A stretch of DNA of 4,833 nucleotides, taken from IMG/VR virus record IMGVR_UViG_2548876865_000014. One strand, 5' to 3'. Each line of letters opens with the position of its first letter. The stretch's first letter is position 1. A program made the position numbers and the translations under genes. The notes below the pieces were generated by a model. It saw nothing but the letters and a program-made list of their open reading frames with translations. It was not told the origin of the DNA and ran no database searches. The stretch comes from a virus. Taxonomy: Duplodnaviria > Heunggongvirae > Uroviricota > Caudoviricetes. Shown here in pieces: positions 71 to 4,833 of the stretch.

Positions 71-411
71 CAGTTCACCACCTGCTCAATCGTACAACTG
101 AAATCACTGTACCTGGCGTTATCTGTGACGCTCCACTCCCGGCACACCACCCTCACCGTCCGGTTATGTTTCGGCGGTCGCCACAAAAAGGCACGGTAAC
201 CACCATGCCAGGATAAAAATTCATCCAGCCAGCGCCGGGTTGGTTCATCCGTCACCCGGAACACCGCCTGAAACGTCTTCAGTCTGGCATTAAGTCCCGT
301 CGGTCGGCGCTGTTCATAACCGTCACCAAACCGAACCCTCACCACCGACGGTTTCTCACTCACCTGCATCCCTTCACGCGGGACCAGATGCAGCGTTTTT
401 ATCTCAGCCAC
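70..411 (-). CDS. M: Minor tail protein M (lambda gpM-like), 113 aa
   Basis: ORF track 70..411. The start is GTG at 411..409, preceded by GGAGGA (419..424) with 7-nt spacing. The protein has an RVRFGDGY motif and an ...EQVVN C-terminus like lambda gpM (by recall). Its start overlaps the tape measure stop, and its stop overlaps the L start. Confidence 0.85.
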   Translation of the reverse strand: MAEIKTLHLVPREGMQVSEKPSVVRVRFGDGYEQRRPTGLNARLKTFQAVFRVTDEPTRRWLDEFLSWHGGYRAFLWRPPKHNRTVRVVCREWSVTDNARYSDFSCTIEQVVN

Positions 412-3400
412 TCAGCATTCCTCCGTCACGTCGCATGGACAGCATCACCGCCTGCACCCGCTGGTCAATCAGCTGCACAAGACTGCCTGCCGCCTCCGCC
501 CCTATCTGTCCGTTAGCCCCGTCATTCTGAATGGCGATGTGGTAGACCGGGGAATACACCAGACCGGCACTGCCGTTCATACTGCCCACCGCGCGTACGC
601 CCAGCGAGCCATCCGCCGCCCGGGTCAGGGGCATAATGGCTTCAGGTCCGGCTTCCCCCATCAGCCCGGCCCCTTTTGCAAACGCAAAGTACGTGGGCGT
701 GTCCACAATGCTGTTGCTGTACGCACTCAGGTTTGCCGAGGTATACACGCCGCCTTTTGCATTGGCCACCGCACCGCCCAGCCAGTCACCAATGCTGCCA
801 ATAAATCCTCCCGCACCGGACATACCGTTTGCCGCCGTCTTAATTCCGTTGACAATCGCGGCATTCATAAGAACTTTTGAGATTTCCTGCAGTACGGATG
901 AGGCCCAGTTGCGCCATTCCACTTTGTTTCCGTTCAGCATCTCCGTGATGTTATTCACCATCCCTGAGATACCCTCCGTCGCAAGCTGTGCTGCCTGTGA
1001 AGCGTAATCGGATGCATTGTCCACCCAGTTACTGAGCCCCTCCTGCAAGCCTTTCTGCCAGTCCGCACGCTGCGCATCCGATTCGGCATAAAAGGCTGCC
1101 TGGTCCTTAAGGCGTTCGCTCAGATACTGCGCGTTCTGTGCCCGTGCCTGTCTGTAAAAATCCTCACTGATATCCCCGGTCTGATACTGAGACTGAAGGT
1201 CCGCATCCTTCTGGCGGAAGCTGTCGCGGATCTGCTGCAACTCCCGCATGCGTTCCCTGGCTCGTTCTCCCTGCCCGTATCCCAGCAGTTCGGCTTCATT
1301 TGATGCACGCGCAGCCACATTATCATTCTTCAGGGTCTCTTCCCGGGATCGCAACTGTTCCCGGATTTTTTGCTGGTCAATCAGGGCCGCGTTACGCAGC
1401 AGTTCCTGCTTCTGCATCTCCGTCAGGGTTTTCAGTTCGCCCTGCGCAGTCTGGTACTTCAGCTTCGCCAGCTCTGTATTCTGACCCGCCAGTGCCAGTT
1501 GCTCTTTCTGCTGCTTCAGTAGCCGGGAAAAACTGTCTTCCGCTTTTTCCGTCTCTGATTTTCCACCCCGGGATTTAGGTTTGTTCGCCTCGTTATTACG
1601 CCAGGCTTCCAGAGCATTACTGATATAACGCTGTCTCGCCTCCTGATACGAATCCCCCACAAAACCAAGGTCATCCGCCGCATACCCCAGCCGGGCACGC
1701 TCTTTTTCCTCCCCCTTCAGTCGGGACAGGGCCAGCTCACGTTCTGTTTTTGTCAGGGCGCTCTGCTGTTTATCATCCAGGGTGGCCTGCGGCAGCCGTA
1801 ACGGTACATTCACCAGTCCCTGACGCTGCTGAAGCAGTTCATTCCCCAGCCCCAGCAGACGGTTGAATTCCGTATGCTGACCGTTCATAACCAGCATGGA
1901 CTGGTACACCTTATTCTGCTCTGCCGCCTGCTGACGAATTAACGCCACACGACGGTCTTCCAGCCCGGCAAGCACATCCTGAATGGACTGCACTTTTTCC
2001 TGCATCTGTGCCAGACGGGACTGCTCAACGGCAAGCTGCTCTGTTGCCTGAGAAAGCCCTTCCGTCACGGTCTTCACCGATGTCAGATGGTTTATCATGA
2101 ATCCGTCACCGGTTGTCCAGCCAGGGTTAGCCAGAACATACTGATATCCAGCGATTTTTTCCTGCAGGGATTTCACCCGGCTGGCCTGTTCATCAATCAG
2201 CCGGTTCTGCTCTGCCAGCGCCGCCCGTGTTCGTCCTTCATTATCTGAGGCTTCAGGCAAAGACATTGACGGCGTTTTATGCGCGATTTCATCTATCGTC
2301 AGTGCATACTGGCGCGCTGACTCCCTGGCCTGCTCCTGATTCTGGTACAGCGTATACCATGCTGCTGCCCCCAGCATCACCAGTCCGGGTACGCCACCAA
2401 CCAGTCCCAACGCACCAGTCATCAGACGTGAGCCCACCGCCGTTGTACTGTTCAGCTCATTCTGGGCTGCGGTTCTGGCAGCAATATTTCTGTTCAGGCG
2501 TTCCTGTGTGGCCGCCAGACGGGCTTCTGCAGCAATCTGCATCTCCGTCCCGCGGGCTGCCGCCACAGCCTGCTGTGCACGGTACACTGCTGCCCTTGCC
2601 CGCGCCGTGGCAATCTGCGTCCCCCTGAGCTGTGCTTCCGCCAGTGCCACTTCATTACGTGCTGCCGTCACAAGTCCTGCCGTGGCAGACACCGCTCCGG
2701 AGGCCATATTGCCAAAGTACCGGGCAACCCCGACGGCAACCAGCGCCCCCGCGGCTGTTGCCACATTATCAATATTACCGGCAACACCGTTCAGCACGCC
2801 GGAGAGCGTTTTTGTCACCCCGCTGGCTTCATTCGCGCCACCCACCCAGGCCATAAAGGCGTTTTCCACCTTTGTGATCCCGTCAGAGACCGTTTCCGGC
2901 ATGGCGGCATATTCATCACGCAATACCCCCAGCTGGCTGATTAACGCAGGAACGACTTTATCCGCCGTCAGTTTGCCGTCGTCCGCCATCGCCTTAAGGT
3001 CTTTACGGGCCACGCCCATACCCGCAGCCAGTGCACGTACGATCCGGTCTCCGCTTTCATTGACCGAATTAAATTCCTCACCGCGTAACACACCCTGTGC
3101 CAGCGCCTGGCTGAACTGGGTGATCACCGAGCCCGCCTCTGCCGTACTGGCACCGGAGATTTTCAGCCCCGTGGAAATGGCCTCCGTCACCTTCAGCACA
3201 TCATCAGCACTGTAACCATATTCACGCATTGAGGCTGCCGAGCGGGCAAACAGGGCCGCATTATCTGAAAATGCCGTGCCCGTCCGCTGGCTGATATCCA
3301 TCAGCACTTTCTGTGATGACGAAAATTCATCGGATGACTGCGACGCCTGTTTCAGTCGGGCATTCACGGAACTCCATTCATCGGCCAGAGAAATCAGGTG

Positions 3401-3646
3401 TCCGGTGGCAAAGGCACCTGCAAATGCCCCCGCCGTTCCGGCAGCTGAAGCGCGGATTTCCGTCAACTGGCTGTTCAGCTCAGCCAGGGCGCGTCGCTGC
3501 TCCCGGGCGACTGCGGCAGCCTGACGCCCGCCATTCTGCAGGGTCCGGTAATATTCACTGCCCATGCGGGAAGCCCGCTGGATCTCCGACTGGAATGACT
3601 GCGAATTTGCCGAAATTTTGATAATCAGTTCACGTAACGTCGCCAT
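404..3646 (-). CDS. H: Tail tape measure protein (lambda gpH family), 1080 aa
   Basis: ORF track 404..3646. ATG at 3646..3644 is preceded by GGAG (3655..3658) with 8-nt spacing. The protein has a long Q/E/R/A-rich region of likely coiled-coil character (by inspection), Gly-rich hydrophobic segments (e.g. LMTGALGLVGGVPGLVMLGAAAWYTLY), and a C-terminal region (...FAFAKGAGLMGEAGPEAIMPLTR...IQNDGANGQIGAEAA...RRDGGMLSG) resembling the lambda H C-terminus (...NNDGTNGQIGP...MRDGGLFSG) by recall. It sits between the G/GT chaperone pair and M. Confidence 0.93.
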   Translation of the reverse strand: MATLRELIIKISANSQSFQSEIQRASRMGSEYYRTLQNGGRQAAAVAREQRRALAELNSQLTEIRASAAGTAGAFAGAFATGHLISLADEWSSVNARLKQASQSSDEFSSSQKVLMDISQRTGTAFSDNAALFARSAASMREYGYSADDVLKVTEAISTGLKISGASTAEAGSVITQFSQALAQGVLRGEEFNSVNESGDRIVRALAAGMGVARKDLKAMADDGKLTADKVVPALISQLGVLRDEYAAMPETVSDGITKVENAFMAWVGGANEASGVTKTLSGVLNGVAGNIDNVATAAGALVAVGVARYFGNMASGAVSATAGLVTAARNEVALAEAQLRGTQIATARARAAVYRAQQAVAAARGTEMQIAAEARLAATQERLNRNIAARTAAQNELNSTTAVGSRLMTGALGLVGGVPGLVMLGAAAWYTLYQNQEQARESARQYALTIDEIAHKTPSMSLPEASDNEGRTRAALAEQNRLIDEQASRVKSLQEKIAGYQYVLANPGWTTGDGFMINHLTSVKTVTEGLSQATEQLAVEQSRLAQMQEKVQSIQDVLAGLEDRRVALIRQQAAEQNKVYQSMLVMNGQHTEFNRLLGLGNELLQQRQGLVNVPLRLPQATLDDKQQSALTKTERELALSRLKGEEKERARLGYAADDLGFVGDSYQEARQRYISNALEAWRNNEANKPKSRGGKSETEKAEDSFSRLLKQQKEQLALAGQNTELAKLKYQTAQGELKTLTEMQKQELLRNAALIDQQKIREQLRSREETLKNDNVAARASNEAELLGYGQGERARERMRELQQIRDSFRQKDADLQSQYQTGDISEDFYRQARAQNAQYLSERLKDQAAFYAESDAQRADWQKGLQEGLSNWVDNASDYASQAAQLATEGISGMVNNITEMLNGNKVEWRNWASSVLQEISKVLMNAAIVNGIKTAANGMSGAGGFIGSIGDWLGGAVANAKGGVYTSANLSAYSNSIVDTPTYFAFAKGAGLMGEAGPEAIMPLTRAADGSLGVRAVGSMNGSAGLVYSPVYHIAIQNDGANGQIGAEAAGSLVQLIDQRVQAVMLSMRRDGGMLSG

Positions 3647-3664
3647 TCACCTTTCTCCGGGCGT

Positions 3665-3685
3665 AAAAAAACCGCCTCAGCGGTT
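3665..3685 (-). terminator. Short hairpin followed by a T-tract in the T-H intergenic spacer (possible weak terminator/attenuator)
   Basis: Minus strand reads AACCGC-TGAG-GCGGTT followed by TTTTT: a CCGC/GCGG core extendable to 6 bp, a 4-nt loop, then a U-run. It lies between the T stop (3694) and the tape measure RBS. The stem is short, so strength is doubtful. Confidence 0.25.
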
Positions 3686-3693
3686 CTCATCAT

Positions 3694-4373
3694 TCATGAC
3701 TGTGCTGCGAAGCTCAGCGCGTCTTCCAGCGCCGCAAACGGATCCACCTCCGGCTTATCCTCATCCTCGCCCCAGCAGAGCATGGCGTCCTTCAGTGCAA
3801 CATTCATCCCCTGTGCCCCAAAAACCGCTTTCACGATCTGTGCATTACGGATATCCCCGCGCTCATCACCCAGCGGGGATACCCTGTCGAACTCCATCCA
3901 CATCATCGCCTCGCTCACACTCAGGCTGTGCCGCAGTTCGGATAAGGTGCGCCCCAGACGGAGCGCAAGTCGCATCAGAAAGCGAATTTCCGGGCGGGCT
4001 ACTTTTTTCTGGCCGACTCTGCATCAGCGATCAGTTCCAGTGCCTGACGCAGCAACCGGGCATGTACCGGACCATAGACGGCCAGCACCTGCTCACGGTC
4101 GTCCGGAGCGAACACCCGCTGCAGATCCGTATCACACAGGACATCGCAGAACAGCGTCACATCCGCTTCCAGGTTACGGCGGGTTTTCGCCACCACCGAC
4201 AGGGTATCGTCATCCTCTCCATCACCATTGAGCACTTCCTGCCACAGATACCAGGCCTCTGCCGAAGGCTCCCGCAGCACCACGCTGACATTACCCCATT
4301 CCGGCACCTTCACCGTTTTATGACGAAACCCTGACAGTCTGGCCAGCGCCAGCGTTTTCAGATCCTTTTTCAT
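3694..4373 (-). CDS. Tail assembly chaperone fusion product (G-T type) made by programmed -1 ribosomal frameshift at 4002..4008; about 226 aa
   Basis: The T-like ORF (track 3694..3975) is in the -1 frame relative to the chaperone ORF. Hand translation in the -1 frame from the heptamer gives ...RKK-VARPEIRFL-MRLALRL... with no stop before the T ORF. The T portion has a W.EFDR..PLG.ER.D.R motif, which I recall as typical of phage tail assembly protein T. The position immediately upstream of the tape measure gene matches lambda G/GT. Confidence 0.72.
3999..4373 (-). CDS. Tail assembly chaperone (G-like, zero-frame product), 124 aa
   Basis: The track ORF 3999..4421 starts at an ATG that would overlap the upstream Ig-like ORF. 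The in-frame ATG at 4373 (MKKDLKTL...) is preceded by AAGGGGA about 9 nt upstream and lies 14 nt after the Ig-ORF TAA, so I take 4373 as the start. The protein is acidic (DGEDDD) and ends ...ARKK directly at the slippery heptamer and TAG stop. Confidence 0.78.
   Translation of the reverse strand: MKKDLKTLALARLSGFRHKTVKVPEWGNVSVVLREPSAEAWYLWQEVLNGDGEDDDTLSVVAKTRRNLEADVTLFCDVLCDTDLQRVFAPDDREQVLAVYGPVHARLLRQALELIADAESARKK
4002..4008 (-). other. Programmed -1 frameshift slippery heptamer A_AAA_AAG
   Basis: Minus strand reads AGA AAA AAG TAG in the chaperone frame. The heptamer A-AAA-AAG is in correct X_XXY_YYZ register, immediately 5' of the stop, and the downstream T-like ORF is open in the -1 frame (plus strand 4002..4008 = CTTTTTT). 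Confidence 0.7.
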
Positions 4374-4387
4374 GATGACCCATCCCC

Positions 4388-4762
4388 TTATCCGGCGGCT
4401 GCGCTCACTGTCACGGTGCATTCAACAGACGTCACACTCTGTGCTTTCTCTGCCGAATCGGTCACCACGCAGGTATATTTCCCCGCATCAGCGGACTGCG
4501 CACCTGGCTTACTGAAGGTGTCTGTCGTCTGCCCGTCAACCGGCTGACCATCCTTCTTCCAGGCGTATTTATACGGCGGCGTTCCCCCGTTGGCACTGAC
4601 TGACATTGTCAGCAGCGCACCTGTATTCACGGTAAGTGTTTTATCCAGATTTTTCACAAACGCCAGCGGTACCACAAAGGACACCGGTTTGCCTTTCATA
4701 CGCAGTGAAAACGTTGCTGCCACCACGCCGTTGGTACCGGATGACCAGGTGTGCTGACGCAC
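4388..4762 (-). CDS. Ig-like domain protein (major-tail-protein C-terminal-domain-like), 124 aa; start codon uncertain
   Basis: ORF track 4388..4762. The first in-frame start is GTG at 4762 with no convincing SD. The sequence ...PPYKYAWKKDGQPVDG...DAGKYTCVVTD...VECTVTV has the Y.W...G / D.G.Y.C pattern of Ig-like decoration domains found on phage structural proteins. The position just upstream of the chaperone gene corresponds to the major tail protein (gpV) slot. Confidence 0.65.
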   Translation of the reverse strand: MRQHTWSSGTNGVVAATFSLRMKGKPVSFVVPLAFVKNLDKTLTVNTGALLTMSVSANGGTPPYKYAWKKDGQPVDGQTTDTFSKPGAQSADAGKYTCVVTDSAEKAQSVTSVECTVTVSAAAG

Positions 4763-4833
4763 TTCCGCCAGGAACTTAGTAAGCGTGCAGCAAGAACCGT
4801 ATTGACGGGGATGTGTTATTCAGTCGGCAGTGC

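Follow-up and report, generated by a model that had tools for sequence, protein, structure and literature searches.

Does the phage tail locus described here make its second chaperone domain by a programmed change of reading frame and, if so, which signal drives it? The locus lies in a 4,833-nucleotide DNA from a virus of the Caudoviricetes (IMG/VR record IMGVR_UViG_2548876865_000014). This whole stretch is referred to below as the window, with positions counted from its first base. Near the 3′ end of a tail chaperone gene (G), an A_AAA_AAG heptamer adjoins the stop codon, and a second open reading frame (T) overlaps it in the −1 frame. An earlier note on this DNA had proposed a G/GT-type frameshift between the two genes, immediately 5′ of the tape measure gene. 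We find that the locus very probably carries a programmed −1 ribosomal frameshift of the G/GT type, within an HK97-like tail module of an O157/Stx-type E. coli lambdoid prophage. This reading is based on the anatomy of the sequence, the protein domains, conservation across the family, and the published frameshifting of an identical 75-nt cassette.

Gene content of the tail module

Read along the minus strand, the genes are ordered as major tail (from 4388), G (4373..3999), T (ending at 3694), tape measure (3646..404), and a gene for a lambda-M-like minor tail protein, M (Table 1). G matches Pfam PF06222 (Phage_TAC_1) over the complete profile (1–124 of 124; E 1.7e-61, 206 bits, gathering cut-off 25) and the PDB entry 2OB9, titled "Tail assembly chaperone", which is the structure of the HK97 protein (E 4.4e-46). 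A profile search with the T portion, as the earlier note had advised, assigns the −1 segment to PF06223 (Phage_tail_T; E 1.5e-18, 67.4 bits, cut-off 25.9, profile 1–71 of 73). PHROG 14766 is a family of fused G-T proteins with 224 positions: G aligns to positions 2–122, and the −1 segment aligns to positions 125–224, including the residues encoded before the first ATG of T. No NCBIfam model matched either the G or the T ORF.

Table 1. Coordinates of the features in and around the G/T overlap
Feature	Position	Strand	Remarks
Gene G, tail assembly chaperone (HK97 gp13 family)	3999..4373	minus	ATG 4373, 124 aa + TAG
Slippery heptamer A_AAA_AAG, −1 shift site	4002..4008	minus	X_XXY_YYZ phase, codons AGA AAA AAG
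0-frame UAG stop of G	3999..4001	minus	adjoins 3′ end of heptamer, next base C
−1 frame segment, predicted to be read after the shift	3694..4002	minus	102 aa + TGA: 9-codon linker VARPEIRFL, then T domain
Trans-frame linker 5′ of ATG 3975	3976..4002	minus	−1 frame
Terminator-like hairpin and U-run between T stop and tape measure start	3665..3688	minus	fold −10.8 kcal/mol, z −1.8
Tape measure protein gene, 1080 aa	404..3646	minus	Pfam Phage_HK97_TLTM 8e-90, TMP_3 6e-58, Tape_meas_lam_C 5e-18
Major tail subunit gene, 3′ part, C-terminal Ig-like domain	4388..4778	minus	Ig_3 and I-set matches; 5′-truncated

Tail modules of this type are shared by lambdoid prophages of E. coli and by Stx-converting phages, with phage 2851, YYZ-2008 and BP-4795 as examples. 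Among 5426 complete E. coli genomes, 1246 contain the module, and these records annotate T throughout as a separate 93-aa gene. A terminator scan of positions 3500..4500 found none; the scan probably stretches the 3688..3665 stem of the terminator-like hairpin into the U-run. In HK97, terminators are annotated at the corresponding location.

Anatomy of the G/T overlap

The last codons of G, read directly on the minus strand, are GCC AGA AAA AAG TAG, with the TAG stop at 4001..3999. The T frame is closed at its upstream end by a TGA (4026..4024); from 4023 it runs open across the heptamer as far as its stop, the TGA of 3696..3694. The earlier note had described both the heptamer at the end of G and a 93-residue T-like frame open back through it, and both descriptions stand. 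According to the ORF listing, ATG 3975 is the first ATG, GTG or TTG in this frame and gives rise to the 93-aa T ORF. Since none of these start codons lies between the TGA at 4026..4024 and position 3975, the linker could be translated solely by way of a frameshift. In conceptual translation, the GT fusion joins 4373..4002 to 4002..3694, has 226 residues, and reads ...ESARKK-VARPEIRFL-MRLALRLGRT... across the junction, which agrees with the product predicted earlier (...ARKK-VARPEIRFL-MRLALRL...).

AAAAAAG occurs once in the window, counting both strands, where 0.54 occurrences are expected, and at least one copy was present in 81 of 200 shuffled sequences; at the scale of the window, presence alone is therefore not significant. 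The chance of an in-phase heptamer inside the 22-nt G/T overlap is about 3e-4 (about 6 in-phase positions at about 5.7e-5 each). Thus, the significance of the heptamer derives from its phase, placement and conservation.

Conservation of the frameshift layout across the family

Our survey comprised 282 loci encoding Phage_TAC_1 relatives, drawn from viral contigs as well as from phage records and species genomes; for every locus, we identified the stop of G, the frame of T and the slip codon. An initial scan of viral contigs gave near-identical copies only, and the diversity in the set comes from genomes, phage records and three scans with diverged queries. Without exception, the 282 loci have T in the −1 frame and the slip codon at the homologous position. 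This codon is a lysine codon preceded by A (once an asparagine codon), and the loci comprise 27 junction types from about ten lineages.

Six slip motifs are used: A_AAA_AAG, A_AAA_AAA, A_AAA_AAC, G_GGA_AAG, G_GAA_AAG, and A_AAG. The G stop abuts the motif in the window, Yersinia-type and phi467-like loci (A_AAA_AAG), in L120-type loci (A_AAA_AAA), in Gammaproteobacterium L013 (A_AAA_AAC), and in Klebsiella phages, where the motif is the A_AAG tetramer only (GCA AAG TAA). It lies one codon further on in mEp390-type loci (G_GGA_AAG), 10–11 codons on in Burkholderia (A_AAA_AAG or A_AAA_AAA), and 5 codons and 1 codon on, respectively, in HK97 and ENT39118 (both G_GAA_AAG). All lineages keep the −1 frame open. 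The linker between slip site and T domain is free of stops and changes in length in whole codons only, and most lineages keep a V-x-x-P-(G/E)-x-x-F-L-M motif in it. The conceptual GT of the window and that of HK97 are colinear across the junction, with 61% identity and a single gap that is far from the junction.

Comparison with HK97, lambda and dnaX

HK97 gp13/gp14 resembles the window in both Pfam families, in gene order, in linker length, and in slipping at the homologous codon pair (GCG CGG GAA AAG, or AREK, in HK97, compared to GCC AGA AAA AAG, or ARKK, in the window). It differs in its G_GAA_AAG heptamer, in the five additional codons that G runs before its stop, and in the presence of a moron, gp15, between GT and the tape measure gene.

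Lambda gpG ends in ...AGKCSTVS, and in lambda the heptamer and the G stop are not contiguous. Lambda shares with the window a −1 shift close to the 3′ end of G, a PF06223 T domain and a location just 5′ of the tape measure gene, as well as a low efficiency with no required RNA structure (PMC5009743, PMC4066793 Table S4). Its slip site, however, is G_GGA_AAG, as the earlier note had correctly stated (PMC4066793 Table S4). No match of the window's G to the lambda gpG family was found, PF06222 being the only Pfam family that G matches at E ≤ 0.01.

The E. coli dnaX gene carries the identical A_AAA_AAG, which is decoded by the single E. coli tRNA-Lys. Frameshifting in dnaX involves an upstream Shine-Dalgarno (SD)-like element and a downstream hairpin, reaches about 50%, and yields a shorter product, whereas the window has neither stimulator, an efficiency of about 7% (taken from the reporter cassette discussed below), and a longer product. 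We found no SD-like sequence about 10 nt upstream of the heptamer and no stable hairpin 5–9 nt downstream of it. The description of this site as dnaX-type is thus apt for the heptamer, but not for the stimulators of dnaX.

Search for stimulatory elements

Upstream of the heptamer, the best anti-SD duplex within 20 nt has an energy of −3.0 kcal/mol, which is equalled or bettered by 66% of 20-nt windows. Sharma et al. likewise score SD as "N" for the corresponding cluster, A_AAA_AAG_25 (PMC4066793 Table S4).

Downstream, we folded the 40, 60, 100 and 130 nt that follow the heptamer, as well as the published 93-nt cassette, and compared the folds with those of shuffled sequences. A mild gain over shuffles was seen in the 60-nt fold only (z −2.0). 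Its source is an 8-bp hairpin (3967..3948), which begins 37 nt past the heptamer in the codons of the conserved LALRLGR motif; we rejected this hairpin as a stimulator, because at that distance it is too far away to act. The proximal hairpin, 8 nt after the heptamer, is weaker than the 8-bp one and no better than shuffles (−7.3 kcal/mol, z +0.33). RNAalifold, applied to 16 diverse homologues, gave no consensus structure downstream of the heptamer, and in the same homologues both hairpins are devoid of covariation or compensatory changes, with pairing not above that of column shuffles. An Rfam scan identified no frameshift element; its sole match, which is below threshold, was isrK at 3665..3732, overlapping the terminator-like hairpin that follows T. 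The long "hairpin" of Sharma et al. does not exceed the average local fold in stability (delta-delta-G 0.020 ± 0.023; PMC4066793). The earlier remark that no convincing structure is visible downstream therefore still holds after folding and comparative analysis. Given that there is neither an SD-like element upstream nor a conserved structure downstream, the signal appears to be the heptamer alone, with the adjoining stop as a possible helper.

Previous descriptions of the same site

The junction corresponds to ECs1801/ECs1802 in prophage Sp9 of E. coli O157:H7 Sakai. G is identical to ECs1801 at 121 of 124 residues, and the nucleotide sequences are identical over a stretch that extends 45 nt upstream and about 80 nt downstream of the G stop, heptamer and UAG included. 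Elsewhere, the two differ by few substitutions, and an IS66-family element disrupts the window's major tail gene. ECs1801 is listed by Sharma et al. (2014) in prophage cluster A_AAA_AAG_25 as "tail assembly chaperone [true]" (PMC4066793 Table S4), a label which, according to its footnote, means that −1 programmed frameshifting "can be safely inferred"; the cluster is the same as GeneTack programmed-frameshift cluster #10 (PMC4066793 Table S7).

The efficiency of the site has also been reported. Antonov et al. (2013) placed frameshift cassettes between GST and MBP in E. coli (PMC3711429), and their 75-nt Phage_TAC insert gave 7% ± 0.79 frameshifting in this reporter, as assayed by western blot (PMC3711429 Table S2). 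The published 75-mer is an exact substring of the minus strand of the window (4028..3954). The identity covers these 75 nt and not the flanks of the insert (18 nt upstream and 45 nt downstream), whose sequence is not printed. The value belongs to the cassette rather than to this genomic copy. In the same study, a cassette of the mEp390 type, with G_GGA_AAG, shifted at 6% (PMC3711429). The lacZ reporter of Sharma et al. gave 0.29% for A_AAA_AAG without stimulators (PMC4066793 Table S3), and G_GGA_AAG shows the same gap between the two reporters (0.28% vs 6%; PMC4066793, PMC3711429). For A_AAA_AAG, the low value speaks against a self-sufficient heptamer unless the assays are not comparable; otherwise, sequence context would have to play a part.

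Thus, judged by its sequence, this is the same element as Sakai ECs1801/ECs1802, and the frameshift site, its heptamer and its efficiency are already published. The novelty implied by the earlier note does not hold, the site having been catalogued (PMC4066793) and assayed on identical sequence (PMC3711429); the dual-reporter experiment that it proposed had, in effect, already been carried out, and its outcome was positive. Its central proposal, a tail-chaperone frameshift upstream of the tape measure gene, is supported by the domains, by the cassette, and by the annotation of HK97, in which the joined gp13/gp14 CDS is described as "translated due to a -1 frameshift". Joined CDSs are also noted as −1 or programmed frameshifts in HK446 and HK544, and KS9 has a joined gp11/gp12 CDS.

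Proposed mechanism

Tail chaperone frameshifts of the G/GT type reportedly form a class described by Levin et al. in 1993 and by Xu, Hendrix and Duda in 2004. The marks of this class are present at the locus: the ORFs overlap between the major tail and tape measure genes, the second ORF lies in the −1 frame and lacks translation signals of its own, and the layout is kept in all homologues surveyed (282/282 loci) despite their divergence. Production of a trans-frame fusion at a low level, another mark of the class, is documented for the identical 75 nt of the published cassette (7%; PMC3711429).

Most ribosomes translating G would stop at the UAG and release the 124-aa chaperone. A minority, about 7% if the reporter with the identical cassette is a guide, would slip back by one base on the heptamer, with tRNA-Lys presumably re-pairing from AAA-AAG to AAA-AAA. 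The next codon to be read would be GUA (4002..4000), followed by the rest of the linker and the T domain as far as 3694. The outcome would be the 226-aa GT fusion, with the junction-spanning peptide ...SARKKVARPEIR....

In lambda, the tape measure protein is bound by G and by the G part of GT, the T domain recruits the major tail subunit, the ratio of the two proteins is critical, and virions contain neither (PMC5009743). By analogy, G and GT of this phage would act as chaperones with the tape measure protein as their client: the G parts of both proteins may coat it, and the T part of the rarer GT may recruit the major tail subunit. The shift would then fix the G:GT ratio needed for correct tail assembly, and both proteins would be absent from the virion.

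Alternative explanations

The alternative that survives best retains the product and the site and changes the step at which slippage occurs. AAG would occupy the P site and the slowly decoded UAG-C the A site, and tRNA-Lys would slip to AAA before RF1 acts, such that a post-translocation slip replaces two-tRNA slippage during translocation. This "shifty stop" is an established concept (Weiss et al. 1987, as cited in PMC5009743). It is consistent with a slip motif that abuts the stop in six groups (window, Yersinia-type, phi467-type, L120-type, L013 and Klebsiella-type), with the failure of SD, folding and RNAalifold analyses to reveal any other stimulator near the heptamer, and with the efficiency of 7% for the native cassette vs 0.29% for the bare heptamer, which were obtained in different reporters (PMC3711429, PMC4066793). 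However, the mEp390-type cassette still shifts at 6% with its stop one codon later (PMC3711429), and the stop lies 5–11 codons past the slip site in the HK97 and Burkholderia homologues. G_GGA_AAG shows the same gap (0.28% vs 6%), and the gap is thus probably a difference between assays. We consider this reading unlikely.

A related claim is that the UAG abutting the slip motif is a working stimulator, in that slow termination by RF1 permits the P-site slip. If true, it would explain the difference between about 7% for the native cassette and about 0.3% for the bare heptamer in another reporter. A difference between the assays is probably the more economical reading of the two A_AAA_AAG values, since G_GGA_AAG shows the same gap although its stop sits one codon away, and we regard a stimulatory role of the UAG as quite unlikely.

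Programmed frameshifting by the ribosome also has to be weighed against slippage during transcription, in which RNA polymerase would add one A within the run of six and the same RKK-VARPE protein would be encoded in one frame. Such a route would give an identical product, and the published reporter would register ribosomal and transcriptional slippage alike. That one additional A suffices is seen in a genomic A7 variant which encodes the exact 226-aa GT (TVS74273.1, GCA_007714145.1), and runs of 8–9 A are found in the phi467-like and L120 lineages. The A7 run, seen in one assembly, is either a one-base homopolymer insertion or a sequencing error. Appreciable slippage by RNA polymerase usually needs about nine or more A, and the six found here fall short of such a run. 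Moreover, homologues with only three or four A (G_GGA_AAG, G_GAA_AAG, GCA_AAG) keep the design, although transcriptional slippage is implausible there, and the mEp390-type cassette with G_GGA_AAG still shifts at 6% (PMC3711429). Transcriptional slippage is therefore very improbable as the source of GT.

Equally improbable is a route without any frameshift, in which T is translated independently from ATG 3975 and yields a free 93-aa protein. GenBank and RefSeq annotate T as a separate CDS of 282 nt, the methionine codon at the position of ATG 3975 is kept in most lineages, such that some independent initiation may occur, and coupling is conceivable in the Klebsiella lineage, where an ATG lies 2 nt past the G stop. 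However, KS9 has ACG in place of this ATG, and ATG 3975 lacks a Shine-Dalgarno sequence: its anti-SD pairing of −3.5 kcal/mol equals the window median, compared to −8.4 for G (AAGGGGA, 5′ of ATG 4373), −6.6 for the tape measure gene and −9.5 kcal/mol for M. Furthermore, the nine codons before ATG 3975 are conserved as −1 frame protein and never interrupted, the 7% GST-MBP fusion from the identical cassette demands a change of frame rather than re-initiation (PMC3711429), and the T domain of lambda functions only when fused to G (PMC5009743).

State of this copy and implications

The 55 bases that open the minus strand (4833..4779) match the end of IS66-family ISEc22-like elements without a difference. 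From 4778 onward, the sequence is homologous to intact major tail genes of 717 nt, and about 130 C-terminal codons of 238 remain. Thus, the major tail gene is interrupted by an IS66-family element in this copy; the junction between the two is absent from the complete E. coli genomes in our collection. The source prophage is probably defective and, as a result, the frameshift site may be what is left of a once functional design and may no longer serve a working phage here.

With a textbook G/GT mechanism and a site that is already published, the value of the locus as a discovery is small. Its value for annotation is more tangible: GenBank, RefSeq and PGAP still call T as a separate gene of 93 aa, starting at an ATG without a ribosome-binding site, and the real 226-aa GT is consequently missing from protein sets. 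The stop abutting the heptamer may contribute to slippage. If that contribution is real, the abutting stop would tie the G:GT ratio to the termination efficiency of the host in several PF06222 lineages.

Frameshift efficiency and variant slip sites

Two published reporters bear on the A_AAA_AAG slip site between G, the tail assembly chaperone ORF, and T, the overlapping ORF in the -1 frame. Sharma et al. (PMC4066793), using a lacZ reporter, measured 0.29% frameshifting for the bare heptamer; for the native cassette (window 3954..4028), Antonov et al. (PMC3711429) obtained 7% with a GST-MBP assay. The same 20-fold gap separates the two reporters for G_GGA_AAG (0.28% versus 6%; PMC4066793, PMC3711429), and may be an effect of context or of the assay.

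Slip sites of other types are found among related loci. The HK97-type site (L007:1320-1360, HK97 itself; also L004 and L098) is read in the 0 frame as CGG GAA AAG, i.e. G_GAA_AAG, which is not a canonical X_XXY_YYZ heptamer; after a slip here, GGA would be the codon re-paired in place of the P-site GAA. The lambda-like letters are present in the run GGGAAAAG, yet out of phase. In a lineage of Klebsiella phages (L099:1166-1292, L100, L103 and about 80 viral contigs), the heptamer is absent and only GCA AAG TAA is found, an A_AAG tetramer abutting the stop codon. Upstream, the -1 frame of this lineage stays open for only 7 nt; on the other side, the stop is followed after 2 nt by an ATG (TAAAAATG). 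This lineage may rely on slippage of a single tRNA, on termination followed by reinitiation, or on the two together.

At the slip site (AGAAAAAAAGTAG), one E. coli assembly (GCA_007714145.1, VMRH01000005.1; L286:1840-1920) has A7 in place of A6, which joins G and T into a single reading frame. The protein deposited from it, TVS74273.1 ("DUF4035 domain-containing protein"), is exactly the conceptual fusion protein, GT. The fused form occurs in 1-2 contigs, compared to about 1000 contigs with the split form. The A7 may be an error in sequencing the homopolymer; otherwise it is a rare mutation, and the mutant would make GT only.

Regions flanking the chaperone genes

Features on either side of G and T in the window
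Feature	Position	Strand	Evidence
IS66-family (ISEc22-like) element, terminal 55 nt	4779..4833	minus-strand 5' end	sequence identity to known copies
Immunoglobulin-like domain, C-terminal part of major tail subunit	4388..4762	minus	matches to Ig_3, I-set and Ig_2
Hairpin with U7, between T stop and tape measure start	within 3665..3732	minus	folding, -10.8 kcal/mol

The hairpin 3' of T (GAGAACCGC-UGAG-GCGGUUUUU, followed by the U7 tail) looks like an intrinsic terminator; a consensus terminator scan did not pick it up. HK97 has annotated terminators at the equivalent position. The 3' end of T together with the hairpin (3665..3732, minus strand) also gives a sub-threshold Rfam match to isrK, annotated there as an Hfq-binding sRNA (27.3 bits versus a gathering threshold of 50, E = 9e-4).

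Copies identical to the ISEc22-like end at 58 of 58 positions number in the thousands on plasmids and chromosomes of E. coli. In the window this end adjoins the major tail subunit gene near codon 108 (of 238 codons), and this gene of the prophage is therefore interrupted. The junction was found in none of the complete E. coli genomes of the collection. Immunoglobulin-like domains, as in the remaining part of this gene, are known from many phage tail tube and decoration proteins.

Annotation of the frameshift product

GenBank, RefSeq and PGAP records of the module give T as a separate CDS of 93 aa (window 3694..3975; L001, L002, L003 and L008), shortened to 210 nt in the record of E. coli O157:H7 Sakai. 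The joined product is never annotated for the module in these records, the published evidence notwithstanding. The number of complete E. coli genomes affected by the missing GT annotation exceeds 1200.
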